Below, in pieces: positions 4,415-54,959 of a stretch of 64,000 nucleotides of DNA. A program made the translations under genes and the position numbers. The stretch is from a virus: the IMG/VR virus record IMGVR_UViG_3300045988_180880, positions 32,001-96,000 of that record. One strand, 5' to 3'. How positions within the stretch are numbered: the first letter of the stretch is position 1; each line of letters begins with the position of its first letter. The notes beneath the pieces are model-generated. The model had not been told where the DNA came from and ran no database searches. It saw only the letters and a list, made by a program, of their open reading frames with translations.

Positions 4415-4450
4415 GGAGGGATAACAAAATTTCCCTCCATTTTCATTTTT
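4415..4450 (+). terminator. rho-independent terminator
   Basis: ggaggga / tccctcc stem then attttcattttt; the T tract doubles as hammerhead stem III 5' strand. Confidence 0.6.
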
Positions 4451-35685: not shown

Positions 35686-36818
35686 ATGTCAGTATCTCTT
35701 GAGTTACTAACCGATGAAGCTATCATCGATTATACTAAAAGTGATGGAAAAGATCAAGTTCTATTTAATCATAGAGACTTGGACCTGAAGTACAATGGAA
35801 TACAACCTATCGCCGGTGGAGTCTATGATGTCGATATTTTTGGCTCACCCATGGAAGATAGATGTATTTGTGGAAAAATTCGACAACCCTCTGCTGAACC
35901 TTGTCCTCATTGCGGGGCGAGAGTATTTACAAGAGAAGAGGGATTGAGAAGATTTGCTAGAATTGAACTTCCTTTCTATTACTTGAATGATTTACGTTTT
36001 GATATCTTTAAAGAACTTTTCGAAGATATTTTTAAAGATAGTAAAATTGTATTAGATTTCTTTGGAGACGATCTTCGAAGAAATGGTTATAGTGCAAGAG
36101 GAGCGAAGAAATTAGGTATTAAAGTTTTTGATACCTGCCAGTTCGAATATAATCCAACAACAAAAGAACTAAAAATATCAGAATTTATTACTGATGAAGC
36201 TCTATGTTCTTACGAAGGATTAATTAAAATTATTGAAGAACATTTTCCCGCTCGTCTTACAGAATTTAAAAAATTAATTAATCGGTATTACCTAGTACAA
36301 CCTGCTATGATGAGACCTTTTACTCTCGGAATTAAAAACGGGAAAAAAGTAATGGGATCTCATAAACTTAGTATTTGGTACTCTATTATTATCAGACTTT
36401 GTTGCGTAGAAGATAAAAAATCTAATGACTTGAACTATGAGGAAGTTACATCTAAATTTAATACCCCTGGAGAAAGAGTTAGATATACAGCCCTTCTACG
36501 TGCTCTCCTAAATGCTGGAAAAAAAGAAGCTACAGCACTACTTAATACATCTAAAGAAAATCTAGCACGTGACTTGTATTCTGTCCGTACTAAAAATTCT
36601 GCTAGATGCCCAATTATACCTAGTACTACATTAGCTATCGATGAAATCTCTGTTCCAATACATATCGCTTATGAAATGTGTCGGGAAGGTTTCTTAGATT
36701 ACTTAATGAAAGAGCTGAATTTTACCAAAAACGAAGCACTCAAAGCAACAAAAGAAGAATATAATAATCCGGAAACTCTGAAAATGTTTAAAGAGTATGC
36801 GGAAAAACAAATCGTACT
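35686..36818 (+). CDS. rpoC: RNAP beta'-like subunit, exon 1
   Basis: zinc-ribbon CICGK..CPHCG near N-terminus; ends ..AEKQIVL(ct-); the ORF-track tail MVS* is intron. Confidence 0.8.
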
Positions 36819-36976
36819 AATGGTTTCCTAATTGGTACGTTAGGTGTGAATCCTAGAATATATAATGTGAATTATGTATTAAATTTTGTGTATTGCTGGG
36901 AGGATCTAAATATCTAATCAGCAGTTGAAGATAATTTATTTATACGAATTTATAATAATTAAAATACTAGAATATT

Positions 36977-37582
36977 ATGAAGGTACTTAGAATTAAACAC
37001 TTCTCTTCTCTAGTATCTACACAACCAATTTTTAATAGATCTGAACATATGAAGCAACTACATGCTCAAGGAAGATATCAAGGTACTTCTAAAATTGGTA
37101 TATGGAATTCTAGTGAAGAGAAGAGACAAAGAATGGCATTACTTGGAGCTAAAAATGCTTTAGATAAAAATTCTAAAGGTTATGGATCTGAGTATGCAAT
37201 GAGAGTAAATAATAGAATATTACTTGGAAATAAATTTCAAGGAGAAACTGGTTATTTATATTTTGTAAGATATCCGAAATCAATAAAAATTGGATTTTCA
37301 AAGAATTGGGAACGTAGAATTAATACCCAATTGATGAATCAATTTCAAATACTTGGTGGAAAAGTTGTAGCAATTATATCAGGACCTACCAATGAACTAG
37401 CTGATCTCGAGTTTGATACTTTTATTAAATTTCAAAAATATACTAAACTGTCTAAAGACGAAACAAGGTATACTGAATTTTTAGATGATAAAATTAGAAA
37501 AGACGTATATAACTTTTTGGATGATAAAGTAAAAAATAATAGTAATTTGAAATTTATTATACAAAATAAAATAAACCTTTGA
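36977..37582 (+). CDS. T5orf172/GIY-YIG-superfamily-like putative homing endonuclease (intron ORF 1)
   Basis: GYLYFVRYPKSIKIGFSKNWERRI core. Confidence 0.5.
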   Translation: MKVLRIKHFSSLVSTQPIFNRSEHMKQLHAQGRYQGTSKIGIWNSSEEKRQRMALLGAKNALDKNSKGYGSEYAMRVNNRILLGNKFQGETGYLYFVRYPKSIKIGFSKNWERRINTQLMNQFQILGGKVVAIISGPTNELADLEFDTFIKFQKYTKLSKDETRYTEFLDDKIRKDVYNFLDDKVKNNSNLKFIIQNKINL

Positions 37583-38364
37583 AATTTATGACACAAGAAG
37601 AAATTAAATACCATAATCAACTATGGTATTATAAAACATATAATCAACTTATAGATAAATGTATACAATTGGAGTCTGATGGTTATCCAGAAGATATGTA
37701 TACAGAGGTTCACCATATATTACCTAAATGTATGGGTGGAACAAATAAGGAAGATAATTTAGTAAGAATGCCTGTTAGATATCATATAATGGCTCATTTA
37801 TTACTTGTAAAAATATATCCAAATATAGGAAAAATAATATATGCAGCTAATATAATGATTGTCGGAAATAAAAATACAAGAGCTGAACGAAATCTAGCTT
37901 TAAATCAATTCTCTACAAAAACTATTAGTCAATTAAGGGAAACTATGGCAAATTATCAGAAAGGAAAACCTTTATCAGAAGAACATAAGCAGAAAATTTC
38001 TTTTGCATTAAAAGGAAAAGTACATTCTGAGGATCATAATAGAAAAGTTTCTGAATCTAAAAAAGGAAAACATTTATCAAAAGAAACGAAAGATAAGTTA
38101 AAGTTGTCCCATTTAGGTAAAAGTCTTTCTGAAAGTCATAAAAAAGCTATTGGAAACGCTCTTCGTGGAAGAAAAGGAAAACCTCTCTCTGAGGAAGTAA
38201 GAGAGAAAATTTCTAAAAATAATAAAATGTCAAAAGCTGTTCAGGATTATAATGGTGTAATTTATAATAGTATCTCTGATTGTTCTAGAAAATTAAATAT
38301 TCCAGATAGTACTATTAGTTATTGGATCAAAAAACATCCTGAAAAAGGTTTTAAATTCGTATAA
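37579..38364 (+). CDS. HNH homing endonuclease with NUMOD3-like repeats (intron ORF 2)
   Basis: EVHHILPKCMGGTN..N HNH motif; repeated S-E-E-H-K-x-K-I-S-x-x-x-K-G-K units; close paralog of 45778..46629. Confidence 0.75.
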   Translation: MKFMTQEEIKYHNQLWYYKTYNQLIDKCIQLESDGYPEDMYTEVHHILPKCMGGTNKEDNLVRMPVRYHIMAHLLLVKIYPNIGKIIYAANIMIVGNKNTRAERNLALNQFSTKTISQLRETMANYQKGKPLSEEHKQKISFALKGKVHSEDHNRKVSESKKGKHLSKETKDKLKLSHLGKSLSESHKKAIGNALRGRKGKPLSEEVREKISKNNKMSKAVQDYNGVIYNSISDCSRKLNIPDSTISYWIKKHPEKGFKFV

Positions 38365-38511
38365 ATAAATTAATCACAATTCAACGACTATGGACAAAAC
38401 CAGGCTAGTGTTGTGATAACCTAGTTTTAACCATGGAAAATATAGTCTTTGCAAGATAGAATTATATCTTGGGTAATCAATATAAGTTGGCTAAAGTATT
38501 GATTATCACAG

Positions 38512-39163
38512 AGTTAATCGCCAACCCTCTTTGCACGAGTACAGTATGTTTAGCATGAAGCTCAAGCTTAATGATTCATATGCAATTGAATTTCCCATCG
38601 CTGTTTGTGAGCCTTTAAATGCTGACTTCGATGGCGATACGTGCTCCATACAACTCGTCCCTCCAGAGGCAGCAGAAGAAACATATCTTAGGATGTCGCC
38701 AAGATATGTGAATGTTTATAAGAAAAATAATGAACCTATATTTAAATTTAACCACGAAACTTTGAATGGTCTTGCAGTTGCATCAGAATACGTATTTGAT
38801 GATCAGGATGAATTAGAAAATCCTAGACACTTTTATACGGATTATGTGCAACTTCTTAAAGATGTTGAAGTAGAGAAAAAAATTAAAGTAGGTACTCCAA
38901 TTACATTCACTGGAAAAATTGGAAATGTTGAATATACCGCTAAAACAACAAGTTATGGTAGACTTCGAATTTCTAAGATTCTAGACGCAGATATGGATGA
39001 AATTGGGATTTTATCTAATAAATATGAACGTATCAGTGCTAAAGCTGCTTCGAAATTATCTTTATATCTTAATCAATTTCCTGATGGAGTTGAGAAAAGA
39101 AAAGCATTACAGAAGCTTGCCCTCAGAATTGTTACATTAGCAGGAGTAGTTACGTTTGACTAT
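38512..39163 (+). CDS. rpoC: RNAP beta'-like subunit, exon 2 (catalytic NADFDGD)
   Basis: junction gives IVL|VNRQPSLH; NADFDGDT at ~38620-38643; ends ..VVTFDY. Confidence 0.8.
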
Positions 39164-39350
39164 AAAATTGTAGCTTAAGAAATAAATTATCTTGAGAAAA
39201 TTCTATTAAAATGCTAGAACTATTAGAATAAAGTAGAATTAGCATCTCTATCTCTTAGATAAAATAGAGTTCAACGACTAAATATAGAACTGTATGAAGT
39301 TATATACAGATGATATAGTCTATCTAAATTAAGAAGATTTAGAATTAATG
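39164..39350 (+). ncRNA. group I intron, family A (187 nt)
   Basis: P1 ctaU / Gtag (short); P aatgctagaac, Q aattagcatc, R gttcaacgactaaa, S gatgatatagtct; ends attaatG. Confidence 0.7.
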
Positions 39351-39464
39351 AAAACGTTATATGCTGATTGTGATACTGAGACGTATAAAAGAATATGTAA
39401 TGTTGCAGATTCAAAAGATCTTACTGATAAACAAAAACTTCTTATAATGACTGAAGAATTTCGT
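39351..39464 (+). CDS. rpoC: RNAP beta'-like subunit, exon 3 (114 nt)
   Basis: KTLYADCDTETYKRICNVADSKDLTDKQKLLIMTEEFR; in frame with exons 2 and 4. Confidence 0.7.
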
Positions 39465-39637
39465 TAATTATTTTTAGCGACTTAATAATTTTAATTATTA
39501 AGAAAAATAAGAGAATTGCTAGAACTATATATAAAATACTGAACTAGCATCAAGTAGTATTAACTATTTGTTCAACGACTATGTACTTATTATAAAATGA
39601 TATAGTCTACCTTTATTGATTGAATAAAGAGTTAGTG
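39465..39637 (+). ncRNA. group I intron, family A (173 nt)
   Basis: P1 tcgU|t / aGcga; P/Q/R/S present; ends agttagtG. Confidence 0.7.
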
Positions 39638-39742
39638 AAATATGAAAAAGAAGTTTCTGAAAGTTTTAGTACAGATCTTAAAAATGAATTAGCACGTGCA
39701 AATCGTGTAAAACTAAACTCGATTGTAGCAATGTCAATGCCT
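39638..39742 (+). CDS. rpoC: RNAP beta'-like subunit, exon 4 (105 nt)
   Basis: KYEKEVSESFSTDLKNELARANRVKLNSIVAMSMP. Confidence 0.7.
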
Positions 39743-39923
39743 AAAGAAAAAATTGGGCAATATAATGAAAATTAACTCATTATATTAAAATTATGTTAAT
39801 TGCTGGAACTGTAAGAATTATAGAATTAGCATCAAGTAAAAGCTTAAATTATTTGTTCAACGACTATATACATAATATTAAAGATATAGTCTAAACTTAT
39901 ATAAAGTAATATAAGTATCATTG
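39743..39923 (+). ncRNA. group I intron, family A (181 nt)
   Basis: P1 tgccU|aa / ttGggca; P/Q/R/S present; ends atcattG. Confidence 0.75.
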
Positions 39924-40042
39924 CAATTTATTGTTAGTGGAGTTGATGAAAAACCTGTTATTACACGAGGAACACTTTTGTCAGGATATACAGAAAAAGA
40001 CTATCAGCTTCATTCAATCGAGAATAGATCACTACAGTCAAT
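39924..40042 (+). CDS. rpoC: RNAP beta'-like subunit, exon 5 (119 nt)
   Basis: QFIVSGVDEKPVITRGTLLSGYTEKDYQLHSIENRSLQS(at-); DYQLHSIENRSL aligns with E. coli QYFISTHGARKGL. Confidence 0.7.
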
Positions 40043-41332
40043 TTTAGTTTACCTTTAGTTGACTATAAATTCTACTAAATGCTGGAATTCTGTGAAGAGA
40101 ATCAGCAGTTAATACAAAACTAAGTCATAAAGTTGTGAAATTATTATGGCAGGGAAATTGGAAAAATTTATATTAACAGATAAAGAAGAAATAGATTCTT
40201 TTAATAAATTAATTAGTTTAAATCCGCAACCTGGAAAATCTTTTGATAATTATTTAAAAGTTATCAATCGCGGTCATTATAAAATATGTTTATATAAATG
40301 GTTTACTGGATTAGATGAAGATATTTATGTAACTCAATCTCATTTATATAAACATTTGAATGATAATAGCAAATTTGTTAAAATAACACCTCAAATTTAT
40401 TATGATGTTATAGTATTAGGTTTGACTAATATTAATGATCGTCCTAAATGTGAAATATGTGGAAAAATATCTAGATGGGATGGATTTAAAAGAGGTTATT
40501 TAAAAACATGTTCAGAAAAGTGTTCTGAACTATTAAGAGATAGTAGAATGTCTGAACAAGGATTAAAAAATTTTCACAAATTACAGACAAAAGAGTCTAG
40601 AGAAAAGCAGAGGGAATCACATAAAGGATGGAGTCCTTCAGAAAAACAAAGAAAACAAATTTCTCAACGAATGAAAGATTTCTATAAGACACCAAAAGGA
40701 TTAGAAATGAGAAAGAATTCTAGTAGGTTATTATCTGAAAGAAATATTGAAATGATGAAAGATAAGTCTTATTATAACAAACGAACAGGAGGTAAATATA
40801 AAACAGGTATATATCATTCTAAAGTTTGGAATAAAGATTTTAATTATGATTCATCTTGGGAAATTAATTTTATAAAATTTTTTGAAAAGCAGAAATGGCA
40901 AAGTGAGATAAAAATATTTGATAGGTGTTTAGATTCTATTATTTATAAATGGGATGATGGAACTGAACATAGATATCTACCTGATTTTTACATCAAATTT
41001 AAATCAGGTCTTCAAGTTGTTATTGAGTTAAAACCAGCAAATCTAATAGAAAAAGATCCGGTGATTTTAGCCAAAAGAATAGCAGCGAAGAAATACTTTG
41101 CAAAAAGAAATATAAAATATATTATATTATCTGAAAATGAACTATTCACAACTAGATATATAAAGTATACTAAATTATCTGAAAGTTTAGGAATAGTTAA
41201 TTCATTTAATATTTATGATTACATAGTTTAATTAAGATTTAGTTTTGTATTAATTCAACGACTATATGTAGAAACTTATGTGAATAAGAAAGGTATAGTC
41301 TAAGTCTTTATGAATAAATAAAGATATCACTG
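40043..41332 (+). mobile_element. group I intron, family A, with endonuclease ORF
   Basis: P1 agtcaaU|t / aGttgact; P aaatgctggaattc, Q gaatcagcagt, R attcaacgactat, S aaggtatagtct; ends tatcactG. Confidence 0.75.
40146..41231 (+). CDS. putative homing endonuclease (NUMOD3-like repeats + PD-(D/E)XK-like C-domain)
   Basis: SEKQRKQISQRMK repeats; YLPDFYIKFKSGLQVVIELKP resembles a PD..(E/D)xK nuclease core. Confidence 0.5.
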   Translation: MAGKLEKFILTDKEEIDSFNKLISLNPQPGKSFDNYLKVINRGHYKICLYKWFTGLDEDIYVTQSHLYKHLNDNSKFVKITPQIYYDVIVLGLTNINDRPKCEICGKISRWDGFKRGYLKTCSEKCSELLRDSRMSEQGLKNFHKLQTKESREKQRESHKGWSPSEKQRKQISQRMKDFYKTPKGLEMRKNSSRLLSERNIEMMKDKSYYNKRTGGKYKTGIYHSKVWNKDFNYDSSWEINFIKFFEKQKWQSEIKIFDRCLDSIIYKWDDGTEHRYLPDFYIKFKSGLQVVIELKPANLIEKDPVILAKRIAAKKYFAKRNIKYIILSENELFTTRYIKYTKLSESLGIVNSFNIYDYIV

Positions 41333-41347
41333 AAAAGTTAGTGGAGT
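41333..41347 (+). CDS. rpoC: RNAP beta'-like subunit, exon 6 (15-nt micro-exon)
   Basis: aaaagttagtggagt; supplies (I)KVSG(V). Downstream P1 agtgg(a)gU|t / aGcccact is homologous to the intron-5 P1. Restores E. coli-like spacing before SGYLTR. Confidence 0.55.
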
Positions 41348-41816
41348 TAGAAATAAAACCTGAACTTTATGGTAGCCCACTATAAATAACAAAGAAATGC
41401 TGGAAATAATAATAGACAGACGAAGTCAAAGTTTTTTAAAATCAGCAACTTATCAACGAGAAAAAGATGAATTATTAGTACTTTTTAAAACTTAATGTGT
41501 AGATTTGAAAAATTCTTAGAAACTCTAAGGCTTGTTGGAAGTATAGCAAGAACTATACTCTCTGGAATTGAAGAATATAGAAAAATTCAAGAAACAAAAG
41601 CTTATCGAGAGAATAAGAAAAATAATGTAAAATATCTACCAAGACCAAAAAGGTATAATAGTAGAAGAAAACAAAGATAAGATCAACGACTATGTATTGT
41701 TAGATTAAGGAAACTCTTTAATCATGATATAGTCTAATCTTACGTGAATAAGCGTAAGCAGGATAAGAGATTAGAAGACGTCTTTTAAAAATTATAATAT
41801 CTAATCTCTTTGAATG
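41348..41816 (+). mobile_element. group I intron, family A, with 61-aa basic ORF remnant
   Basis: P aaatgctggaaat, Q aaatcagcaac, R gatcaacgactat, S atgatatagtct, P9 cttacg../..cgtaag, extra 9-bp hairpin agagattag/ctaatctct; ends ttgaatG. Confidence 0.6.
41495..41680 (+). CDS. small basic intron ORF (61 aa), function unknown
   Basis: ORF track; sits in the loop position used by endonuclease ORFs in sibling introns. Confidence 0.35.
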   Translation: MCRFEKFLETLRLVGSIARTILSGIEEYRKIQETKAYRENKKNNVKYLPRPKRYNSRRKQR

Positions 41817-42106
41817 GCCTAGTTCAGGATATTTAACACGACAAATTTCATTCCTTTTAAATAGTTTTATATATCATGAAGGAGAAGATCCAGAAAACAC
41901 AGGATTACTCATTCCACGATATAAAGCATTAGGAAGAACAGCACCGAACGGAAAGGTATACCCAGACAAACCAATAGTAAATGGTTCTGAGGATGATCTT
42001 GTTCCAGTACGTTCGATTGTTACAAAAAGAACTGGAGATTTAAGCACAATTACACCAGACCTGATTGGAAAGAAATTTAGTTTTACTGATGGAGCAGCAA
42101 TAGGAT
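41817..42106 (+). CDS. rpoC: RNAP beta'-like subunit, exon 7
   Basis: (V)PSSGYLTRQISFLLN...VRSIVT...GAAIG(t--); SGYLTR is a universal beta' block. Confidence 0.7.
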
Positions 42107-42344
42107 AAGTTTAGAATTGTCCATAAAAGTTTGTTATAGACTTTTATTAAACTTCAAGAATTGCTGGGAGTATTATCGCTATTTATTCTTCGCCTTGTAA
42201 AATAAAAAACTTAAGGCGAAAATTATATAGCGAGAGATAATCAGCAAAAGATATAGAAAATATATCTTCTTAACGACTATGTGTGAAGGAGAGATTAAAA
42301 CACTCTTAAGATATAGTCTAGTAATCTATATAAAGTTTGTATAG
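42107..42344 (+). ncRNA. group I intron, family A (238 nt)
   Basis: P1 ggaU|aa / ttGtcc; P aattgctgggag, Q taatcagcaaa, R cttaacgactat, S aagatatagtct; ends gtatagG. Confidence 0.7.
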
Positions 42345-42392
42345 GTTTAATCGTATCATTTGCTACATCATTAACTGAAGGTACTACTCAAT
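42345..42392 (+). CDS. rpoC: RNAP beta'-like subunit, exon 8 (48 nt)
   Basis: (C)[15 protein letters not shown](t--), equivalent of the trigger-loop block IAAQSIGEPGTQLT. Confidence 0.7.
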
Positions 42393-42573
42393 TAAAATTG
42401 GTTGCTATATAAAATAGTATTATATAGAAAATCTTTGTAAAATGCTGGAAATTAAAAAAAAATAATCAGCATCAAGGAATATATTAATAACTTGTTCAAC
42501 GACTATAAAAAAAGATCTTATTAATTTAAGAATGGTATAGTCTAAATTCATTCTAAAAGGATGAATAATCTTG
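42393..42573 (+). ncRNA. group I intron, family A (181 nt)
   Basis: P1 caaU|t / gGttg; P/Q/R/S present; ends aatcttG. Confidence 0.65.
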
Positions 42574-42602
42574 CAGCATTAGGTCTGAAACATGGTGGCC
42601 AT
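42574..42602 (+). CDS. rpoC: RNAP beta'-like subunit, exon 9 (29 nt)
   Basis: (S)ALGLKHGGH, equivalent of E. coli MRTFHIGG. Confidence 0.7.
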
Positions 42603-42762
42603 AGATTATATTTGTGGCGTATAATTTCAATAATTGCTGGAAATATTTGTAATAAAATAAATCAGCAGGGGAAAATAAAATCCCTTCAACGACTATAAAT
42701 GAAACTAGATGAATTTCTGGATGATATAGTCTAACTTATAAATTATATTATAAGAGTAATTG
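42603..42762 (+). ncRNA. group I intron, family A (160 nt)
   Basis: P1 gccaU|a / tGtggc; P aattgctggaaat, Q aaatcagcagg, R cttcaacgactat, S gatgatatagtct; ends agtaattG. Confidence 0.75.
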
Positions 42763-43002
42763 GAACGTGTGCTTAATACAGAAGGAAATCTTAAAGCACC
42801 AAAACAATGTGAGTTTAGAGAGGAAGGCAGATGGATTTACCTAAAAGTTAGAGGAGGAGAATTAAAATATCCGAGACCTAATAATTGGGTAGGAGTAGGT
42901 AAGACAAAATTTGAGAAAGGTGACTTAATAGGGTCAGCTTATAATACTACCTCGCCTATTTACAAGTTGAACGCTCTCATAAAACTTATGCGTGCCAAAG
43001 GT
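42763..43002 (+). CDS. rpoC: RNAP beta'-like subunit, exon 10
   Basis: ERVLNTEGNLKAP...LIKLMRAKG; the ORF-track tail EYKIAV* is intron. Confidence 0.7.
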
Positions 43003-43195
43003 GAATATAAAATTGCCGTCTAAGGAAGTAATTCTCTAGATAATTAGTAAGTAAATTTGGTGAAGCTAGTAACTAGTAATACCAAGCCTTGGATTAATAA
43101 TTAGAATCTTAAGGTATAACGAATAAAGACTTACCAACTTTTTTATAAGTTGAATTTATATTCTAAACTATAATAAGAAAATTATAGATAAATTG
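43003..43195 (+). ncRNA. group I intron, family B copy 1 (193 nt)
   Basis: P1 ggU|ga / ttGcc; P3 agtaagt/acttacc, P4 tttggt/accaag, P7 gaata/tattc; ends ataaattG. Confidence 0.75.
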
Positions 43196-43804
43196 AGTGA
43201 TGGCACAAGATATTTTGAGAAGGATAATGTTATTGTATCTGATTGTTATGCTTTGAATGATGGGGTTATTCATTACAAAGAGACCAAGGAAGGTGATACT
43301 GAAGTTTGGATTGGTGATACTCAGTATGACTATAATCCAGAGTGTATGTATTATTTTCCTGATGGTACAGAGATTAAGAAATTTCAAAGAATTTCCAGCG
43401 GAGTTTGCAATATGAATCATGTTATTGCAGAGTTGGGTTCTAATATTAATGATATTTACTTAATCTTTAGAAAACAATTTTATACTTTAACAGATGGAGG
43501 ATTTGTATCAACTGGTTTATCAGATCTTCATGCTACACAGGAAGAACTTATTGAACTTTTATTCACAGGTTTAACTGATGTAGGTGTAGATCCAGAAACA
43601 CAGAAGATTGAAGACATCCAATATCTAGGTACTCAAAGTGGTGTTTTAAATAAGAAGTCATTCTATACTGTTTTGTCTTACGGTTATAGCTCTAGAGTTG
43701 TGTCTAAAGCTCTCAAAGGGGAATTAAATCTTTCTGGTGACGTAATGACAGAAACTATATTAGGATTACTTTTAAATAATAAACTTGACGAAAAACAAAA
43801 GTAA
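43196..43804 (+). CDS. rpoC: RNAP beta'-like subunit, exon 11 (C-terminus)
   Basis: SDGTRYFEKDN...; total spliced frame 3351 nt + stop. Confidence 0.75.
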   Translation, partial: SDGTRYFEKDNVIVSDCYALNDGVIHYKETKEGDTEVWIGDTQYDYNPECMYYFPDGTEIKKFQRISSGVCNMNHVIAELGSNINDIYLIFRKQFYTLTDGGFVSTGLSDLHATQEELIELLFTGLTDVGVDPETQKIEDIQYLGTQSGVLNKKSFYTVLSYGYSSRVVSKALKGELNLSGDVMTETILGLLLNNKLDEKQK

Positions 43805-44123: not shown

Positions 44124-44474
44124 ATGAACGATAATTATTATAAAATTATACTATCATATGAAATTCCATATAACATTTTAGACAGTCAAGATCCGAATAT
44201 TATACAGGCGAGAGAAATATTATATGAAAAACTTAGAGATGATATTTTTCCGAAGTATGAAAGATTTTCGGTAAAGCTTACATTACATCAACTTAAAGAT
44301 AACTTCAATTATCTTGTTACTTATGAAGCTTTTTTTAGATCTCTTGATGGTAAACCTATGGGAGAATATGTAGAGGCTCGTAGCTTAAAAGATAGTATTA
44401 AATCAGAATTAGAAACATTTTTTAATTCAGTAGATTGCGAATATAAGCAATTAAATATAAAACCATTAGTATAA
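44124..44474 (+). CDS. hypothetical protein between beta' and beta genes
   Basis: ORF track; stop overlaps the beta start (TAATG). Confidence 0.5.
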   Translation: MNDNYYKIILSYEIPYNILDSQDPNIIQAREILYEKLRDDIFPKYERFSVKLTLHQLKDNFNYLVTYEAFFRSLDGKPMGEYVEARSLKDSIKSELETFFNSVDCEYKQLNIKPLV

Positions 44475-45336
44475 TGAGTAATTTTAATCAATATTTCAGA
44501 AACACTGGAGCAAAAATTATAGTAGATCGATTTTTTAATAAAGTTGATGCATATAATCCTAAAGTAAAAGTTGGAAAAATTGGATATTCATTTATAGAAG
44601 AACCTCCTCAACCAGCTTCTTACTATATTGAAAATGGATTAACTGCTACACATAAAGTAAGAATTGAATATACAACTATAACGGATGGGAAAGAAGATCC
44701 TGAAATGAAGTATGCAGAGTTCGAAGTTCCTAAAGAAATTGATGGTGCATTTATTATAGAAGGCGCTTATCGTATTTCAACTAATCGAATGGGATCTGAT
44801 TATGACTGTCGTATTAAAATGTCTGGTACAGGAGATTATAAAGTTAATTTCGACTATGATAGAGTTTACGATATTCAAAAACAGATTCTGAAGATAAAAA
44901 GAATTAATCCGGAACTTGGAATTGCAGATAAACCAATTGATATAAAGTTTGAAGACATTGATAAATACTTGGAAACTGATAAAAAGGAGATCTTGAAGTT
45001 AACTGAAAGACAAACCAAGAAATTAATGATCAAACTTGACTTGGATTATAAACCTGAATATATTACACAAAAACTAATACAGGAATGTTTGGCCTTTGGA
45101 GATGATAGACTAAAAGACTTAATCATTGATAAAACATTAGAATCAGTTCCTAACAGTTTTATGCAATATATTTTTAGGAATAATAATGGACGTAACTATT
45201 TTGCAGCTAGACGAAGAATTACATCATATTTTACAAAGTATGGTAAAATTCAAGATCAAGTTACTGCAATTAGTACTTTGTGTTTTAGATTTTTTAAAGG
45301 AAGTAGCGATAACAAAGGAGATTCAGGAGTACAGGT
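44474..45336 (+). CDS. rpoB: RNAP beta-like subunit, exon 1
   Basis: ends ..GDSGVQ(gt-); the ORF-track tail is intron. Confidence 0.75.
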
Positions 45337-45544
45337 ACAAAATATAAAGGTGCCGTTTTATGGAGAAATCTATAAAATTATTAGTAAGTAAATTCGGTGA
45401 AGGGTAAAACCTAATACCGAACTAAGGATAATGAAAATTTTTAGTGTAACGAATAAAGACTTACTAACTTATAATTAAAATATAAGTTAAATTTATATTC
45501 TGTTCTATATAAGTAGAACTTTATTTATATAGTTAACAATAAAG
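45337..45544 (+). ncRNA. group I intron, family B copy 2 (208 nt)
   Basis: P1 ggU|ac / gtGcc; P3 agtaagt/acttact, P4 ttcggt/accgaa, P7 gaata/tattc; ends caataaaG. Confidence 0.75.
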
Positions 45545-45635
45545 CCCCCCTGGAGTAAATTCCATTAACTTAGAGGCAATCTCCCAAAAAATTGTTATTC
45601 CTGCGAGTGTAGCCTTTAATTCGACTTTTACAGAT
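45545..45635 (+). CDS. rpoB: RNAP beta-like subunit, exon 2 (91 nt)
   Basis: (V)PPGVNSINLEAISQKIVIPASVAFNSTFTD. Confidence 0.7.
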
Positions 45636-46763
45636 TTAGATTAAGTCTGATTATAGAATATTTTTTATAATAAAAACTTTGAGAATTGCTAGAAAACTAG
45701 TGATAGTTAATTAGCAGTATAAAATAAGTATAATTATTTATGCGTTGAGAGGAAAAATTTTTGAAAGGAATTTAAGAATGACGCATGTAAAAGAAATTAA
45801 ATACCACAATCAATTATGGTATTATAAAACGTACAATCAGTTAATAGATAAGTGTATACAGATGGAGTCTGAAGGTTATCCTGAAGATATGTATACAGAG
45901 GTTCACCACATACTACCTAAATGTATGGGTGGGACAAATGATGAGTCTAACTTAGTAAGAATGCCAGTTAGGTATCATATAATGGCACATTTATTGTTAG
46001 CACAAGTATATCCAGAAATAAATGGATTAGTTTATGCAGCACATGTTCTAGTCTCAGTGAATAATTCAGTTGTATCTACGAATACAGCTGCATTAATTAG
46101 AGAAGATTTTAAAAAGTCTAGAATAGGATCTCATCATTCAGAAGAGACAAGGAGAAAAATTTCTGAATCTAACAAAGGAAAAGTTATCCCTAGAGAACTA
46201 GTAGAGAAGTTAAGATCTATTAATTTAGGGAAGAAACATTCACTTGAAACGAGAAAGAAGATGTCAGAAGCTAGAAAAAGAGAGAATTTATCCGAGGAAA
46301 CACTAAGAAAAAGATCTCTAGCGTCCTCTGGAAGAAAACATTCTGAAGAAGTCAAGAAGAAGATTTCTATAGCTAATACTGGAAAAATTTTTAGCGAAGA
46401 ACACAGACAAAACATATCTAAAAGTAAGATGGGAAAAGGACATCCACATACTGAAAAAACAAAGAAAATGATGTCTGATACTAGCGTTAAGAGAAAAAGA
46501 GTTCAAGGCCCTGATGGAATAATTTACGAATCTATGAAACTTTGTTGTGAGAAATTTAATATTCATAGAGATACCCTTCGAAGCTGGATTAAAAATCACC
46601 CAGAAAAAGGCTTTAAATTTATTGATTAAAAAATTTATCATTACTATAAATTCCTTTCAATGTAATGAAATTTAATACTTATTTTATATTCAACGACTAT
46701 GTACAAAGAGGGAAATTCCTTAAGATATAGTCTAGTGATAAAGTAAAAAACTTTATCTATTCG
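45636..46763 (+). mobile_element. group I intron, family A, with HNH endonuclease ORF
   Basis: P1 cagaU|tta / taaGtctg; P aattgctagaaa, Q aattagcagt, R attcaacgactat, S aagatatagtct; ends ctattcG. Confidence 0.8.
45778..46629 (+). CDS. HNH homing endonuclease with NUMOD3-like repeats
   Basis: start moved to ATG 45778 (the track starts at an upstream TTG); first ~80 aa are near-identical to 37579..38364. Confidence 0.75.
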   Translation: MTHVKEIKYHNQLWYYKTYNQLIDKCIQMESEGYPEDMYTEVHHILPKCMGGTNDESNLVRMPVRYHIMAHLLLAQVYPEINGLVYAAHVLVSVNNSVVSTNTAALIREDFKKSRIGSHHSEETRRKISESNKGKVIPRELVEKLRSINLGKKHSLETRKKMSEARKRENLSEETLRKRSLASSGRKHSEEVKKKISIANTGKIFSEEHRQNISKSKMGKGHPHTEKTKKMMSDTSVKRKRVQGPDGIIYESMKLCCEKFNIHRDTLRSWIKNHPEKGFKFID

Positions 46764-47132
46764 TTAGTCGATATTGCCGACACTCCTATAAATAATAATA
46801 CTAACCTCCAGAACTCACTTACAGTTTCATGTCATATTACAGACGATGATGTACTATTTGATGTATATGATACAAATTTCGTAAAAATAACAATAAAATA
46901 TATAGACTATCTTAATAAAAAAGTAGCTGCCAGTGAGTATGTAGATTATGAAACTAACACTTTAAAGCCAGATAAAGATGGTCAAGTGGAGGTTAAGTAT
47001 AGGATGAAAAGAAAGATGGTTCCAGTCGAAGAAGTGGAATTGATCGATTTACATCCTGATTACAGATTGTCTAGCACAACTCGAAGAATCCCATTTGTGA
47101 ATTATACAGATAGTGTCAGAATAAGCATGGGT
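46764..47132 (+). CDS. rpoB: RNAP beta-like subunit, exon 3
   Basis: LVDIADTPINNNTNLQNSL (E. coli CPIETPEGPNIGLINSL) ... RRIPFVNYTDSVRISMG. Confidence 0.8.
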
Positions 47133-47326
47133 ACTAATTTATGTGCCGCTTAAAGTAGTAATATTTTAAGTAACCAGTAAGTAAATTCGGTGAAAGAGTG
47201 ACTGAGCTTTAATACCGAGCTAAAGATAATAGATTTCTTTAGTGTAACGAATAAAGACTTACTAACCAAAATAAAGGTTAAATTTATATTCTAAACTATA
47301 ATTAAAAGTATATTATAGAAGATTTG
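47133..47326 (+). ncRNA. group I intron, family B copy 3 (194 nt)
   Basis: P1 ggU|ac / gtGcc; core as in other B copies; ends aagatttG. Confidence 0.8.
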
Positions 47327-48266
47327 ACATCAATGCTTAAACAGAGTATACCTCTGATTAATGCGGAGCGTGCACTTGTTGACACTGGAAGGAATGAAGA
47401 GTTGAAAGATAATATATTAAATGAAAAGTTCAGTTATCCAGAGGGTAAGGTAAAGGATATAACAGAGGATGAAGTTATAATTGAATTGCCTGATGGAACT
47501 GAGACAAATATTTTACGAAGAACAGCGATTCAGAGTATAAATGACGTGGCGGTATTTACAGAGCCTAAAGTAAAAATCGGCCAAAAAGTAAAACAGGGAG
47601 ATATTATAACTGGTGCAGTTGGACATACTCCTGAAACATATAAGGCCGGCGTTAATGCTCTGGTACTTTTCCACGCCTATTATGGTTTAGTAAATGAGGA
47701 TGCTTTGGTGATATCAGAATCATTTGCAAATCGTATAGCATCTTATAGTATAATTGACTTAATGATTAATGTTAAGAGTACTAGTGCTATTAAGTGGATC
47801 GCCCCTATTGGAACAAAGGTTAAATCAAAAGATGCAGTAGTGACATTATATAAAGCTGTTCGTCTTGATGCTATAAATCAGGCACTACAAGAAAAACTCG
47901 GAGGACTTTTCGGAGAAGGACATGATCTCTCCGAATATACTATCGAGGATCATTTAGTTGTGCCTAATAATATAGACGAGGCAATAGTTTCTGATGTAAT
48001 GATACAGGAAATGAAGAAACCTAAAATTCCTAAATCAGTAAAATCACCTGACTATTCATTTACACATACCTCTCAGGATGTTATAGATGAATATGAAAAA
48101 ACAAAATCTCGAAAAATTATCTACGAGAAATACCCAGAGTATATTGCAGCTGATACATTAGATCCTATTAATATGGATCCAGAAGCGTATAAGATTGTGT
48201 ATACTGTTCGCGTGAGACTCATCAAAAGAACTGTGGGAATGATCGGAAGTAAAATTACCTCTAGAT
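47327..48266 (+). CDS. rpoB: RNAP beta-like subunit, exon 4
   Basis: junction SMG|TSMLKQSIPL aligns residue-for-residue with E. coli LMGANMQRQAVPT; ends ..GSKITSR(t--). Confidence 0.8.
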
Positions 48267-49666
48267 TTAATATAAGTCTAGTTAATTTTCAATAAAAGTT
48301 AACTAAATTTTGTGAATTGCTGGAAAAATCTAAATAAAATAGATGGATAGATAAATCAGCAGTATATTTATGTTTAATTATGAGTAAAATATGAGCGATA
48401 TTAATTTTTAATAATAAATTGAACAATGAGCGAAGAAGAAATATTAATACATAATCAAAATTGGTATCGCAAAGTATATTTCCAAATAATTGATCGCGCT
48501 AGATTAAGAGGTTTGGATAAAAATAAAATTGATTTTTATGTAGAAATTCATCATATACTACCTAAATGCCTAGGAGGAACTGATGAAAATGATAACTTAG
48601 TTGCATTAACTTATAGAGAACATATAGTTTGTCATAAATTATTGTGTAAATTATACCCAGATAATTACTACTTACATTCTTCTATATATTTAATGCTACA
48701 TATTAAAATAGAAAATGGGAAGAAGGTAAAAACATTTTCTAATTCTAAAGAGGCAGAAGAATATAAGCTTTTCTTGAAAACTCATAAAAAGCCTCTTTCT
48801 GAGGAATCTAGAAAAAAGATGTCAGAATCGCATAAAGGTTGGAGTCCATCTGAGGAACATAGAAGAAGAGTTTCAGAAGTACATACTGGAAAAATCGTTT
48901 CAAAAGAAACCAGAGAAAAATTAAGAAAGGTTAATCTGGGAAGACATCATACAGAAGAATCCAAAAGAAAGATATCAGAGTCACGTAGAGGAAAGAAATT
49001 ATCTTCAGAACAAAAAGAAAAAATTTCAAAATCACTAAAAGGAAAAAGATTAGGAATCTCTCCAACTAAGGAACAAGTAGAAAAAGCAAAACAAACTCGG
49101 ATACTCCATGGAGGGTGGGTACATACAGATGAAAGTAAAAGAAAAATTTCAGAATCTTTAAAGAAGACGAATTCTGTCTCTGAACATATATCAGAAGATA
49201 TAAGAAATTCTTTAAGGAAAAAGTTTGGGTTCGCTGTAAGATATACTGATATTAATACTGGTGAAATTTACGAATTTGATTCAATTACAAAAGCTGTTAG
49301 TGAACTTAAAGAGTTAAGTATTATGAATAAAAGCTTTCATTTTATAAAGCGTTCTTGTACATTAAATATTAATGGATTTGAATTTATCAATGAAACAAAT
49401 GAAATGATTCAAAAGAAAGTTCAGGGGCCTGATGGAATTATTTACAATAGTATATCTGAATGTGCTAGACAATTGAATACAGTTAGATCTGTAATTATTG
49501 ATTGGATTACTAATCATCCAGAAAAAGGATTTAAATACATTTAAAAAATCAATCGCTCATTGATATAAAAATAATTAAATAAAATATATTCAACGACTAT
49601 GTACAAAGAAGGAGTATTTCCTTAAGATATAGTCTAGACTTTACTTAATTAAGTAAAGTATTATCG
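48267..49666 (+). mobile_element. group I intron, family A, with HNH endonuclease ORF
   Basis: P1 ctagaU / Gtctag; P aattgctggaaaa, Q aaatcagcagt, R attcaacgactat, S aagatatagtct; ends tattatcG. Confidence 0.8.
48426..49544 (+). CDS. HNH homing endonuclease with NUMOD3-like repeats
   Basis: EIHHILPKCLGGTDENDN; many SEExRxKxSExxKG repeats; C-terminal WITNHPEKGFKYI as in the two paralogs. Confidence 0.75.
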   Translation: MSEEEILIHNQNWYRKVYFQIIDRARLRGLDKNKIDFYVEIHHILPKCLGGTDENDNLVALTYREHIVCHKLLCKLYPDNYYLHSSIYLMLHIKIENGKKVKTFSNSKEAEEYKLFLKTHKKPLSEESRKKMSESHKGWSPSEEHRRRVSEVHTGKIVSKETREKLRKVNLGRHHTEESKRKISESRRGKKLSSEQKEKISKSLKGKRLGISPTKEQVEKAKQTRILHGGWVHTDESKRKISESLKKTNSVSEHISEDIRNSLRKKFGFAVRYTDINTGEIYEFDSITKAVSELKELSIMNKSFHFIKRSCTLNINGFEFINETNEMIQKKVQGPDGIIYNSISECARQLNTVRSVIIDWITNHPEKGFKYI

Positions 49667-49680
49667 ATGGAGGCAAAGGT
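49667..49680 (+). CDS. rpoB: RNAP beta-like subunit, exon 5 (14-nt micro-exon)
   Basis: atggaggcaaaggt gives (Y)GGKG; the join ITSR-YGGKG-VVSAVKPDDMMP matches E. coli GRHGNKGVISKINPIEDMP. Confidence 0.75.
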
Positions 49681-49871
49681 CAAATTACAAGGCCGTTTAA
49701 GGTAGTAATATCTTAAATAATCAGTAAGTAAATTTGGTGAAGGAAGTAAAATTCTAATACCAAGCTAATAAAATATAATAATTTATTAGTATAACGAATA
49801 AAGACTTACTAGGTTGAAATAATACCTAAATTTATATTCTAATTTACTAGGATAATCTAGTAATAGTAATG
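49681..49871 (+). ncRNA. group I intron, family B copy 4 (191 nt)
   Basis: P1 ggU|c / gGcc; P3 agtaagt/acttact, P4 tttggt/accaag, P7 gaata/tattc; ends agtaatG. Confidence 0.75.
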
Positions 49872-50645
49872 GTTGTAAGTGCTGTGAAACCCGACGATAT
49901 GATGCCAATAATGGTAGATAAGGATGGGAAACAAAGACGTTGCGAAGTAGTGATGAATCCATACAGCACAATAAATCGTAAAATTCCGAGTGTCCTTATG
50001 GAATTACAACTCGGAAATATCGCTCACAAATTACACGATCTTGTAGATAATTATAAGAAAACAAAAACAGGGCAAAAGAAGATTAAGCCCCTTCTTGAAA
50101 CATATTACCCCGGACGTTTTACTAGTATGGATGTAGAAGAAATTATAGAACGTCATAATACTAGTAAAATCGAGGATATGTATTATTTCAATGTTGGCTG
50201 CTTCTCTACTAAATTTACTCCAGAACTTGTAAATCAATGGGCTGAAGATTTAGGTGTAGAAAGTCAGAGTAAAATTCTTATGCCTGAGACTGAATTAACA
50301 GATCTCGATGAATTAAAAGAAAATCTAGAACCAGAAGAATATGATAAATTAGTTTCTGGAATGTCTGGTAAGTTTAGAGAAGTAGATAAACCTTTGCAGG
50401 CGGGATTCATGACCCTTGAAGAGTTATACCATATACCATCATATAGTAATAAGGTTACATCAAGTCTATATGGCGTAGATATTAATGCTAAACGAGATGA
50501 ACCTATACTTGGAAAGGGACGCTATAGACAGACAGGACAGAAAATTGGTGAGATGGAATTGGCCGTATTACTTTCTAGAAATGCGGATCAATTTATCAGC
50601 GGTGCTAGAAAAGACACTGCGAAGGAAGATAATCAAATGTTCCTT
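49872..50645 (+). CDS. rpoB: RNAP beta-like subunit, exon 6
   Basis: VVSAVKPDDMMP..VVMNPYS...GQKIGEMELAVLL (E. coli GGQRFGEMEVWALE)...NQMFL. Confidence 0.8.
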
Positions 50646-50833
50646 AAATTATTGAGGCTAGTATCAATACAAACTGATACTAGAAAATATCTTAAATTGC
50701 TGGAACAAAGTAGAAAATCAGCATCAAGCTGTTGTTTTATAATTAACAGCTTGTTCAACGACTATAGTAGATACTAAAGAATACTTATTTTAGATAATAT
50801 AGTCTTACTTTAAATAAAATTAAAGATGAATAG
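50646..50833 (+). ncRNA. group I intron, family A (188 nt)
   Basis: P1 cctU|a / tGagg; P aaattgctggaac, Q aaatcagcatc, R gttcaacgactat, S gataatatagtct; ends atgaataG. Confidence 0.7.
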
Positions 50834-50862
50834 AATAACTTATTAGGTCTAGGATTAACCGT
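50834..50862 (+). CDS. rpoB: RNAP beta-like subunit, exon 7 (29 nt)
   Basis: NNLLGLGLT(gt-), equivalent of E. coli NVLLKEIRSLGI. Confidence 0.65.
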
Positions 50863-51067
50863 AAACTATTTGCGGTTTTAAATTATATTAAAATGCTAGA
50901 ATATTTATAATAAATATATTAGCAAAATATCTTACCTTAGATTATATCTAAGAAAAAGATATTCTCAACGACTAAATATATAACTAAGTTTGAAATATAA
51001 TTTAGATGATATAGTCTGAACATAGATTAATAATAATCTAGTAACGTAATTGAGTAGATGATAAAGG
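50863..51067 (+). ncRNA. group I intron, family A (205 nt)
   Basis: P1 aaccgU / Gcggtt; P aaaatgctagaat, Q atattagcaaa, R ctcaacgactaaa, S gatgatatagtct. 3' end placed at the only G (51067) that keeps the frame open. Confidence 0.6.
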
Positions 51068-51164
51068 ATTTAACCAAGGTGGATCAAGTCTGAAAAAGGA
51101 ATTGAATGACTTAAAGATTAAATTCCGTCGTAAAAATAACCTATTAAACATGGGAGGTAATTGA
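51068..51164 (+). CDS. rpoB: RNAP beta-like subunit, exon 8 (C-terminus)
   Basis: (V)FNQGGSSLKKELNDLKIKFRRKNNLLNMGGN*; total spliced frame 3177 nt including stop. Confidence 0.6.
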
Positions 51165-51165
51165 T

Positions 51166-51795
51166 ATGGAAAATAATAGCTGTTTAATGCTAAATTGCTC
51201 GCTTTATCTTCCAGTATCCTTATCTGCTATATTTAGTAGAGAAGATCTTAAAGATACTGGAATTGAAAATGAATCGCATATAACATTATTATATGCTCAA
51301 GGAAAAGAAATCCCTAAGATGAATATTCTTGGAGATATTGAAACTATTTTAGGGGAATCTGAATTTGATGATTTTATTGAATATATAAAATCTGAGAATA
51401 CTGAAAGAATCTTAGATAATTTTGAGATCGGATCTTTTGAGAATGATAGTGACTATATAGTGTTGAAAATGAAACAAACCAGTGAATTATACAAAACACT
51501 TGGATTAATTAATAAAGGATTAAGAACAAAATATGAAGTTGTTTCTGAGTATTCCTATACGCCTCATATATCCCTCGCTGAACTTCAACCAGGAACAGCA
51601 AGGAAATATCTCGAGGATCCTAAGATTAAATTAATTCTAGAAGAAAGTTTTGTATCATTCGAAGATCTTGTTATTTCCTATGGACCTAGTAATACGCCTG
51701 TAGATAGATTGAGATATAATCTAACTACATTTAATGCAATTGATTACTTCTTTCATACAGAAAATATGAGAAAAGAAAATTCAGAATTAGATTAA
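51166..51795 (+). CDS. 2H phosphoesterase (LigT / 2',3'-cyclic phosphodiesterase-like)
   Basis: two HxT/Sx motifs: ESHITLLY and TPHISLAE, at the spacing typical of the 2H superfamily. Confidence 0.65.
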   Translation: MENNSCLMLNCSLYLPVSLSAIFSREDLKDTGIENESHITLLYAQGKEIPKMNILGDIETILGESEFDDFIEYIKSENTERILDNFEIGSFENDSDYIVLKMKQTSELYKTLGLINKGLRTKYEVVSEYSYTPHISLAELQPGTARKYLEDPKIKLILEESFVSFEDLVISYGPSNTPVDRLRYNLTTFNAIDYFFHTENMRKENSELD

Positions 51796-51875: not shown

Positions 51876-52883
51876 ATGTCAAAAAAGTCAAAATGGTCAG
51901 AGTATAGTAGTATTGAAAAAGTTCAAGAATTCATAAATTCCAATAATATTAGCAGTAAAATAGATTTTAAAAATAAATATCAATCTTTATATACTAGAGC
52001 TAGACTAAATAATTGGTTAGATAATTTAAAATTTAAGATAATAAAAAGAAATGATCTATCTAAATTTGATAATATAGATTCAATAAGAGTATTTATAAAT
52101 AATAATATAAAAAGTAGAACAGAGTTTAAGAAAAAATATAATGGATTATATTGGAAATCTGTAAGAAGTGGTTGGATACATGATATAAAATTTGAAAAAG
52201 ATATGAAAGATTGGAGTTACTATGATAGTATAGTTAAGGTTCAAAATTTTATCTATTCAAATAATATTTTAAATCATGATCAATTTTCAAAAGAATATCC
52301 AGGATTATTAAGTAAATGTGATAGAAATAGATGGAGTATTTACTTAAATTATATAAATGGTAAGATTAATAACTGGAATAATATTAATTCTATTATAGAT
52401 GCACAAAATTTTATAAATATTAATAATATAAATAATAGAGAATTATTTACAAAAAACTTTAGTGGTTTATCTGATAAATGTTATAGAAATAATTGGATGA
52501 AGGATTTAATTTTCAAAGAAGATGGAATTAAATCTTGTTGGGAAATTAATCTTAAGATATTTCTAAAAAAGAATAATTATACTATAGAATCTGAAATAGT
52601 ATCATATTCAAATTATTCTAAGATTGATATTTTTATACCAGATCTAAACATAGCTATTGAAATTCAGGGTCCATACCATTTCCCAGTAATGGGAAAATTA
52701 GAGCAATATCTATTTCAAAGAAAATCTGATATAAAGAAAAATAGATGGTGTAGAGAGCAAGGAATTACTTTGTTATACTTTAGCTATGATAAACTATTAG
52801 TAGAAAAATATGGATATCCCTGGTATATTTACACATCAGAGAAAGAATTGTTGGCAGAAATAGAACGAATCAAATCCTTATAA
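51876..52883 (+). CDS. free-standing nuclease: four ~55-aa tandem repeats + Vsr/DUF559-like PD-(D/E)XK C-domain
   Basis: repeat unit W-x-x-(Y/F)-(S/D/N)-(S/N)-I-x-x-(V/A)-(Q/R)-x-F-I-N-x-N-N-I ... W four times; C-terminal KIDIFIPDLNIAIEIQGPYHF. Confidence 0.5.
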   Translation: MSKKSKWSEYSSIEKVQEFINSNNISSKIDFKNKYQSLYTRARLNNWLDNLKFKIIKRNDLSKFDNIDSIRVFINNNIKSRTEFKKKYNGLYWKSVRSGWIHDIKFEKDMKDWSYYDSIVKVQNFIYSNNILNHDQFSKEYPGLLSKCDRNRWSIYLNYINGKINNWNNINSIIDAQNFININNINNRELFTKNFSGLSDKCYRNNWMKDLIFKEDGIKSCWEINLKIFLKKNNYTIESEIVSYSNYSKIDIFIPDLNIAIEIQGPYHFPVMGKLEQYLFQRKSDIKKNRWCREQGITLLYFSYDKLLVEKYGYPWYIYTSEKELLAEIERIKSL

Positions 52884-54860: not shown

Positions 54861-54867
54861 TAAATAG

Positions 54868-54941
54868 TGGGCCCAGCCAGGCTTGAACTGACGACCTTCT
54901 GATTATGAGTCAGCTTCTCTAACCAACTGAGATATGGGCCC
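54868..54941 (-). tRNA. tRNA with CAU anticodon (Met, or Ile if lysidine-modified)
   Basis: minus strand gggcccatatctcagttggttagagaagctgactCATaatcagaaggtcgtcagttcaagcctggctgggccca; 7-bp acceptor, GTTCAAG T-loop. Confidence 0.85.
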
Positions 54942-54959
54942 TGTTATAATTATGTCTAG

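Follow-up and report, generated by a model that had tools for sequence, protein, structure and literature searches.

The window analysed here is a stretch of 64,000 nucleotides (nt) of viral DNA (IMG/VR record IMGVR_UViG_3300045988_180880, positions 32,001 to 96,000 of that record) with a GC content of 29%. On its plus strand, a locus of 8119 nt is very probably one phage gene for the beta' subunit of a multisubunit RNA polymerase, ten sites of which have been invaded by group I introns; these fall into two sequence families, type A with nine members and type B with one. A first-pass annotation had proposed that eleven exons of this locus join into a single stop-free frame of 1117 amino acids (aa), and when the segments are joined as proposed, 3354 nt including the stop codon are indeed obtained, which encode 1117 aa with no internal stop. 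The exon and intron lengths add up to exactly 8119 nt, and the introns make up 58.8% of it, in agreement with the 59% given before. At every boundary the last base of the exon was found to be T and the last base of the intron G. The coordinates of all features are collected in Table 1.

The suggestion that the product is a beta'-type subunit is borne out by the database matches of the spliced protein. The Pfam domain RNA_pol_Rpb1_2 (PF00623) is matched at residues 301–427 with E=2.5e-18, and bacterial beta' chains in the PDB are matched with E values down to 4.9e-13, as for the chain of Thermus aquaticus (1hqm_D) at residues 283–466. The Pfam match and that to 1hqm_D both cross junction 1, and the alignment to 1hqm_D covers NRxPxLH as well as NADFDGD, so that the active-site motif, located in exon 2 as had been annotated, and Rpb1 domain 2 are both present. 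A protein search returned many uninterrupted homologues of 1113–1126 aa, with 71–73% identity at 100% coverage, on contigs of up to ~294 kb; one of them, P0002, is a single gene on a contig of 293.7 kb. Among the GenBank phages, megablast gave no match and tblastn gave only relatives at 22–34% identity, and there is thus no annotated close relative among them.

An alignment with seven uninterrupted homologues shows no gap at nine of the ten junctions in their proposed form. Junction 1 rebuilds KQIVL/VNRQPSLH (the slash marks the splice), as had been claimed for its core IVL/VNRQPSLH, and inclusion of the micro-exon 6, predicted to supply IKVSG to the bridge-helix region, restores SIKVSGVPSSGYLTR, identical to the homologue P0001; P0039 and similar proteins terminate exactly at this exon. 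At five junctions the splice falls within a codon (phase 1 or 2).

The tenth junction had to be corrected. With the 3' end of intron 7 as proposed, three extra residues (GAAIG-CLI-VSF) are left in the protein, which are present in none of the seven aligned homologues. Moving the splice by 9 nt, from 42344/42345 to 42353/42354, restores GAAIG/LSFATS, and the corrected site falls after the P9 hairpin (AATCTATA/TATAGGTT) and a short tail with a final G, TAATCG, which is the arrangement of the other introns too. The related contig L002 has an allele without the intron whose DNA is identical to the corrected junction at 48 of 48 positions, and ten further loci match it, nine with 1–3 mismatches and one with 8, while the junction as originally proposed has no match in any related locus. 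Since intron 7 ends at 42353 and not at 42344, the product is 1114 aa (3345 nt) and not 1117 aa.

Judged against the well-known beta' motifs of Escherichia coli, the insertion sites are presumably in the most conserved parts of the enzyme. Intron 1 lies beside NRxPxLH and upstream of NADFDGD, introns 5 and 6 lie around the bridge-helix motif ..SGYLTR, and introns 7–9 occupy three sites inside the trigger-loop segment, which starts GAAIG/ and ends /E.

That the insertions are group I introns, as had been recognised, is supported by their architecture and by covariation. The helices were called by an anchored helix search, applied to all 17 introns of beta' and of the neighbouring RNA polymerase beta gene. 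In all 17 there is a U at the exon end, a terminal G, and a guide sequence that starts with G and pairs with the exon end; P3, P4, P6, P7 and P9 follow in the canonical group I order in all 17, and P5 is present in all but beta intron 6. The annotated splice sites, defined by the U.G pair of P1 and the terminal G, hold for all ten beta' introns, in the case of intron 7 after the correction. P1 comprises 3–7 base pairs (bp) with U.G at the 5' splice site, and the intron's own guide ranked first of 17 candidate guides in 10 of the 17 cases. Long insertions are found solely in the loop of P6. In intron 1, for example, the helices are P1 CGTACT/GGTACG, P3 TTTTGT/ACAAAA, P4, P6, P7, P8 and P9, followed by the terminal G.

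Two sequence families can be distinguished in beta'. Introns 1–9 (type A) share the elements TGCTRGRA, its partner ..AGCA, AACGACTA and ATAGTCT, whereas these motifs are absent from intron 10 (type B), the helices of which are P1 GGT/GCC, P2, P3 GTAAGT/ACTTAC, P4 TTTGGTG/TACCAAG, P5, P6, P7, P8 and P9, again with a terminal G. P7 reads GACTAT/ATAGTC in type A and GAATA/TATTC in type B. The introns inside the window are 52–76% identical to one another. The element AACGACTA has 13 copies in the window, and the clustering of the intron motifs is not due to chance, because all 13 lie on the plus strand and within the two polymerase genes.

MAFFT alignments of the type A introns were tried, but they turned out to be structurally unreliable outside P4, P7 and P9 and were replaced by the anchored helix search and a covariance model (R1) built on intron 9 alone. 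When the window and 20 other loci were searched with this model, 138 matches were obtained, all on the gene strand, and the profile matches to the introns are likewise confined to that strand. Among 66 distinct type A sequences, 95.1% of the cells are paired, compared to 65.9% after shuffling and 33–45% when the partners are slid, and 37 of the 40 model pairs vary on both sides. It is important to point out that P3 was left out of the model and could hence not be fitted to it. Still, 81.7% of its cells are paired and compensatory changes occur at all five pairs, which supports the P3/P7 pseudoknot, the defining feature of the group I fold. P1 was judged from the anchored helix search alone, since in the model-made alignment its final pair is U.G in just 20 of the 66 rows and the helix is unreliable there. 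For type B, RNAalifold on the four copies in the window recovers P1 (with its U.G pair), P2, P3, P4, P5 and P6, with 11 compensatory pairs.

Further evidence comes from 25 related IMG/VR loci (designated by L numbers), on contigs of 30–378 kb, 15 of which measure 232–378 kb. In 22 of the 25, the best exon match is 93–100% identical to the window, and each contig has exactly one beta' match. The relatives differ in the introns that they carry. L005, L012, L013 and L023, which come from three metagenomes, share the complete set of ten beta' introns; in L005 nine of the introns were identified by both junction probes, and intron 4 by one junction together with the exon map. Empty DNA sites at the exact predicted junctions were found for introns 7 and 8 with no mismatch in 40 positions, for intron 9 with 3, and for introns 2, 3, 4 and 10 with 5–8; intron 2 has empty alleles in 15 related loci, the best with 5 mismatches. 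For introns 1, 5 and 6 there is no empty DNA site among the related loci, and only the more distant uninterrupted proteins bear on these three. The counterpart of intron 1 in relatives is a 903-nt version.

Counting the core motifs, 7–15 are found per beta' gene in the 20 close relatives with a complete beta', the maximum of 15 being reached in L009, L012 and L021, and more distant genes have two (L020) or none (L001). Ten introns are thus typical for this clade and not a record. Extra intron sites in the relatives lie near positions 1262, 1353, 1382–1408, 2041, 2100, 2490, 2693 and 2727 of the coding sequence. When 35686–43804 of the window is compared with L002–L026, exon blocks beside shared introns are 98–100% identical between relatives and blocks without them about 80%, a mosaic that would fit co-conversion or modular recombination.

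Endonuclease genes are found in a minority of the introns. No open reading frame (ORF) of at least 30 aa is present in 12 of the 17 introns, as judged from the ORF list for beta' and by reading the sequence for beta. In beta', four ORFs are placed in the P6 loops of three introns, those with a good match to an endonuclease family occur in introns 1 and 5 only, and intron 6 has ORFs of just 32 and 61 aa, the latter with no Pfam match. The predicted endonucleases, together with the presence and absence of introns at the same sites among relatives, suggest that these are mobile introns. The type B sites are the four in the window (Table 1) and one each in L006 (~22153) and L014 (~13370). All six are preceded by GGT, and all copies have the same 3-nt guide GCC and no ORF; as a hypothesis, this restriction to GGT would fit spread by reverse splicing.

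On this basis we infer that the introns are removed at the level of RNA, and that they may do so unaided, in the following way. The whole gene would be transcribed as a single pre-mRNA of at least 8.1 kb, in which each intron would fold individually, its internal guide sequence pairing with the last 3–7 bases of the exon to place U.G at the 5' splice site. Guanosine would attack this site, and the released exon end would then attack after the terminal G. Ten such events would yield the 3345-nt reading frame and the protein of 1114 aa. An in-frame stop is located 2–33 nt into nine of the ten beta' introns, so a ribosome entering one of these unspliced would be stopped early, and the stops would keep ribosomes off the catalytic cores. 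For the introns without ORF, the presumed means of spread or persistence are recombination between co-infecting relatives or endonucleases acting in trans, with reverse splicing as a further presumed route for type B.

A number of observations weigh against this interpretation. P8 is present in eight of the ten beta' introns, introns 3 and 4 being the only two of all 17 that lack it. P1 has just 3–4 bp in several introns, and in intron 6 it forms only if an A is bulged out (GTGG(A)GT/GCCCAC, as read directly from the letters). P10 can be recognised in roughly half of the introns and is absent from the others, the mean being 1.9 pairs where the control has 0.95. In intron 9 an early in-frame stop is missing, and the first to occur ends 96 nt in. 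The covariation pair counts given above are inflated, P3 excepted, because the alignment was fitted to the structure of the model. Finally, the comparison with Rfam RF00028 that had been put forward as a check gave no group I match in the whole window at the gathering score, and on a 15-kb slice (35–50 kb) Rfam gave none at E<=10 either. On a slice of 1.1 kb, sub-threshold matches do appear, to intron 9 with 29.3 bits (E=2.8e-5; the gathering score is 50), to intron 8 with 14 bits and to intron 10 with 10.8 bits, and we read the failure as low sensitivity of RF00028 for AT-rich mini-introns.

The structural points bear most directly on the option that the insertions are true group I derivatives of which some, such as the P8-less introns 3 and 4 and those with a P1 of 3 bp, are unable to self-splice and need the assistance of a protein, from phage or host, or of introns nearby on that transcript. 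We consider this a real, though minor, possibility. Unaided catalysis is doubtful for introns 3 and 4 because P8, a core helix, is missing; in intron 3, just 35 nt extend from AACGACTA through ATAGTCT, with no P8 hairpin. The form recurs, since 19 of 98 distinct cores, among them these two introns and cores in L022 and other loci, have 31–35 nt between the same limits, compared to 40–98 nt in the others, and it appears to be stable, because 7 of the 19 occur in a relative at only 70% identity. A P1 of 3 bp is moreover found in every type B intron, and the weak or absent P10 in about half of the introns points the same way. On the other hand, no maturase was identified in the window, and the reduced class retains P3, P4, P6, P7 and P9 and sits in essential genes with intact exons, which argues that removal works, in a manner that these features do not indicate.

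The extreme intron load and the two introns without a core helix could also be expected of a decaying, non-functional beta' copy, that is, a dispensable gene in which introns have piled up and whose exons are never spliced into a functional product. This is very unlikely, given 3345 nt of exon sequence without stop or frameshift, a full-length identity of 71–73% to uninterrupted homologues, the single beta' match per related contig, and the occurrence of the same ten-intron allele in three metagenomes with exons 97–100% identical. Genuinely split subunits, translated separately and assembled as proteins like the split beta and beta' of phiKZ-like and AR9-like phages, were considered as well. 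The terminal G creates an ATG, TTG or GTG before several exons, which is why ORF callers report fragments, but exons of 15, 29 and 39 nt are too small to be subunits, codons are split at five junctions, the intervening DNA has a conserved group I core, and relatives have the same protein uninterrupted; the probability of this scenario is close to nil. Just as improbable is a metagenome assembly artefact, in which similar repeats would have been stitched into a gene that does not exist. The introns do form repeat families within one locus, but the exons are complete and in order, and an artefact is ruled out because the introns are merely 52–76% identical and several samples yielded this structure in independent assemblies. 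The in-frame stops, the lengths not divisible by three and the group I cores of the inserts led us to reject inteins, translational bypassing and group II introns.

With a beta' gene interrupted by ten group I introns as the preferred reading, one can speculate that the clade hosts miniaturised group I introns in a diversifying swarm, one that has moved past classical homing. In this broader picture, which taken as a whole we hold to be rather unlikely, the recurrent P8-less class of about 140–180 nt would still splice, and the ORF-less type B with its fixed guide GCC would use reverse splicing to colonise any exon with GGU at its end. Intron-based interference between co-infecting relatives would have its battleground in the polymerase genes, which would account for exon blocks that travel with their introns.

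The next large gene after beta' encodes RNA polymerase beta and is interrupted in a similar way, bringing the total to 17 introns within 15.5 kb. Its exons were derived with the beta of L001 as guide, and the spliced protein aligns to that beta without gaps at every junction, with 698 identical residues; the exon ends in T and the intron in G at all seven sites. In L001 itself, a relative of 293.7 kb whose beta' is uninterrupted, beta contains a single type A-like intron, at 15365–15614, ~9 nt downstream of a site that is occupied by type B in the window, and different introns thus occupy neighbouring sites. Profile searches of the window gave no introns outside beta' and beta. Downstream of beta on the plus strand there are two ORFs with sub-threshold matches. 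The one directly after beta (51166–51795) matches a 2H phosphoesterase / 2'-5' RNA ligase with E=0.036, and the other (51876–52883) a PvuRts1I-like endonuclease with E=0.012, which might be a free-standing endonuclease.

Table 1. Exons, introns and intron-encoded ORFs of the beta' and beta genes (window positions).
Feature	Position	Strand	Description
beta' exon 1	35686..36818	+	1133 nt; ATG start; ends in T; junction KQIVL/VNRQPSLH gapless against homologues
beta' intron 1	36819..38511	+	type A group I, 1693 nt; two ORFs in P6 loop
intron 1 ORF 1	36977..37582	+	201 aa; possible GIY-YIG superfamily, weak: Pfam T5orf172 E=0.036, under curated cut-off
intron 1 ORF 2	37579..38364	+	261 aa; HNH/NUMOD3 homing-endonuclease-like: NUMOD3 4.1e-10, I-TevI DNA-binding domain 2.9e-4, HNH 0.011
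beta' exon 2	38512..39163	+	652 nt; contains NADFDGD
beta' intron 2	39164..39350	+	type A, 187 nt; helix search; nhmmer E=2e-19
beta' exon 3	39351..39464	+	114 nt; homologue alignment
beta' intron 3	39465..39637	+	type A, 173 nt; without P8
beta' exon 4	39638..39742	+	105 nt; homologue alignment
beta' intron 4	39743..39923	+	type A, 181 nt; without P8
beta' exon 5	39924..40042	+	119 nt; homologue alignment
beta' intron 5	40043..41332	+	type A, 1290 nt; P1 AGTCAAT/GTTGACT (7 bp), full core; ORF in P6 loop
intron 5 ORF	40146..41231	+	361 aa; TnsA-like (PD-(D/E)XK) endonuclease: Pfam Tn7_TnsA-like_N E=2.7e-9, over curated cut-off
beta' exon 6	41333..41347	+	15-nt micro-exon (..I KVSG V..)
beta' intron 6	41348..41816	+	type A, 469 nt; core helices
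beta' exon 7	41817..42106	+	290 nt; homologue alignment
beta' intron 7	42107..42353	+	type A, 247 nt; extended P5; 3' end corrected by +9 nt
beta' exon 8	42354..42392	+	39 nt (earlier proposal: 48 nt from 42345)
beta' intron 8	42393..42573	+	type A, 181 nt; empty-site allele in L002 with 0 mismatches in 40
beta' exon 9	42574..42602	+	29 nt; homologue alignment
beta' intron 9	42603..42762	+	type A, 160 nt; most compact complete core; P1–P9 all present except P2
beta' exon 10	42763..43002	+	240 nt; homologue alignment
beta' intron 10	43003..43195	+	type B group I, 193 nt
beta' exon 11	43196..43804	+	609 nt including stop
RNA polymerase beta gene	44474-51164	+	8 exons, 7 introns; 1063 aa spliced
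beta intron 1	45337-45544	+	type B
beta intron 2	45636-46763	+	type A, with HNH ORF
beta intron 2 ORF	45745-46629	+	294 aa; NUMOD3 1.3e-17; HNH 0.003 (sub-threshold)
beta intron 3	47133-47326	+	type B
beta intron 4	48267-49666	+	type A, with HNH ORF
beta intron 4 ORF	48426-49544	+	372 aa; NUMOD3 2.4e-15; HNH 0.008 (sub-threshold)
beta micro-exon	49667-49680	+	14 nt; encodes conserved ..Y GGKG
beta intron 5	49681-49871	+	type B
beta intron 6	50646-50833	+	type A, without P5
beta micro-exon	50834-50862	+	29 nt
beta intron 7	50863-51052	+	type A

Some other observations were made in the window. The genes for tRNA-Met (CAT) and tRNA-Leu (TAA) are adjacent at 54867–55050 on the minus strand. At 2710–3690, to the plus-strand side of a gene cluster, there is about 1 kb with no ORF of at least 30 aa, for which Rfam gave nothing at E<=1. 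Two copies of a ~70-nt direct repeat (gctaaaacaaccagcccgagttatggattaacttgggtttagagacaataattaacaaaattaata) are located at ~3818–3890 and ~4146–4220, in each case after a small membrane-protein-like ORF (3701–3826 and 3917–4153). A covariance-model match at 4334–4509 (28 bits) was judged to be a false positive, as conserved core elements are missing and the matched stretch runs over an ORF end and hairpins that resemble terminators. A hammerhead-like arrangement near 4471–4507 (CUGAUGAG..CGAAAC) was dropped, having no Rfam match at E<=1, and is probably due to chance.

The locus is an extreme new example of the known intron infestation of huge phages and not a new kind of system, and its interest rests on the intron density, the micro-exons, the reduced introns and the polymorphism at the population level. 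Standard pipelines, including Rfam at its curated threshold, miss all of these introns, and the polymerase appears as a string of small ORFs; the intron counts per genome published for phages of this sort may therefore be underestimates. If the phage is to produce its own polymerase, 10–15 ribozymes would have to fold and splice correctly per transcript, with exons down to 14–15 nt, which makes the locus a natural test of splicing fidelity, exon skipping and the minimal size of a group I core. The intron differences among nearly identical relatives are at the same time a ready data set on gain, loss and co-conversion in viruses, and they link to the idea of intron endonucleases as weapons between co-infecting phages.

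The earlier remark that nothing near ten introns in one gene is known stands as far as the count per gene is concerned, in that full-text literature searches gave no report of at least ten introns in one viral or bacterial gene, but intron-dense huge gut and crAss-like phages have been published (PMC12880540, PMC7886860). A lexical search for literature on group I introns lacking P8 returned nothing relevant. The Jug phages of gut Bacteroides/Phocaeicola have genomes of 360–402 kb with 27–30% GC and on average 18.5 group I introns per genome, of about 206 nt, which split essential genes, with terL in 2–3 pieces and nrdD in 4; endonucleases of the HNH, PD-(D/E)XK and GIY-YIG types occur, and metatranscriptome reads confirm splicing for 37 of 76 predicted introns (Sci Adv 2026, PMC12880540). 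In the passages of that paper covered by the search, RpoC is mentioned solely as a marker protein, with no mention of splitting (PMC12880540). The present phage resembles them in size class (contigs of the relatives reach 378 kb), GC content (29%), intron richness and types of endonuclease. It differs in having 17 introns in two adjacent genes, compared to the average of 18.5 per genome in the Jug phages. It also bears on this comparison that uninterrupted homologues of 1113 aa are abundant, and only 71% identical to the beta' described here.

For the Zeta and Delta groups of crAss-like phages, genomes with as many as 14 introns have been reported, with a capsid gene in five fragments (Nat Commun 2021, PMC7886860), while here ten introns are located in one gene and no inteins were seen. 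Another case is gp210 of PhiPA3, where a group I intron with an I-HmuI-like HNH endonuclease sits in a conserved motif of the virion RNA polymerase gene and acts against a co-infecting relative without the intron (Science 2024, PMC11620839). That is a single, experimentally characterised intron, whereas the present locus has a swarm, mostly ORF-less and known from sequence. In cultured phages, at most two or three introns per gene are described, as in orf142 of Staphylococcus phage Twort and in Bastillevirinae, where internal exons are small and exon skipping is a recognised danger (PMC11878797 and reference 34 therein), compared to ten here and up to 15 cores in relatives.

The nearest parallel in intron density is fungal mitochondrial cox1. 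The cox1 gene of Agaricus bisporus has 19 introns. In cox1, too, many group I introns with homing endonucleases occupy the most conserved parts of an essential gene and are polymorphic in presence and absence (PMC8393795). Those introns are organellar, large and mostly ORF-bearing, whereas the ones described here are viral and for the most part ORF-less mini-introns of 160–250 nt.

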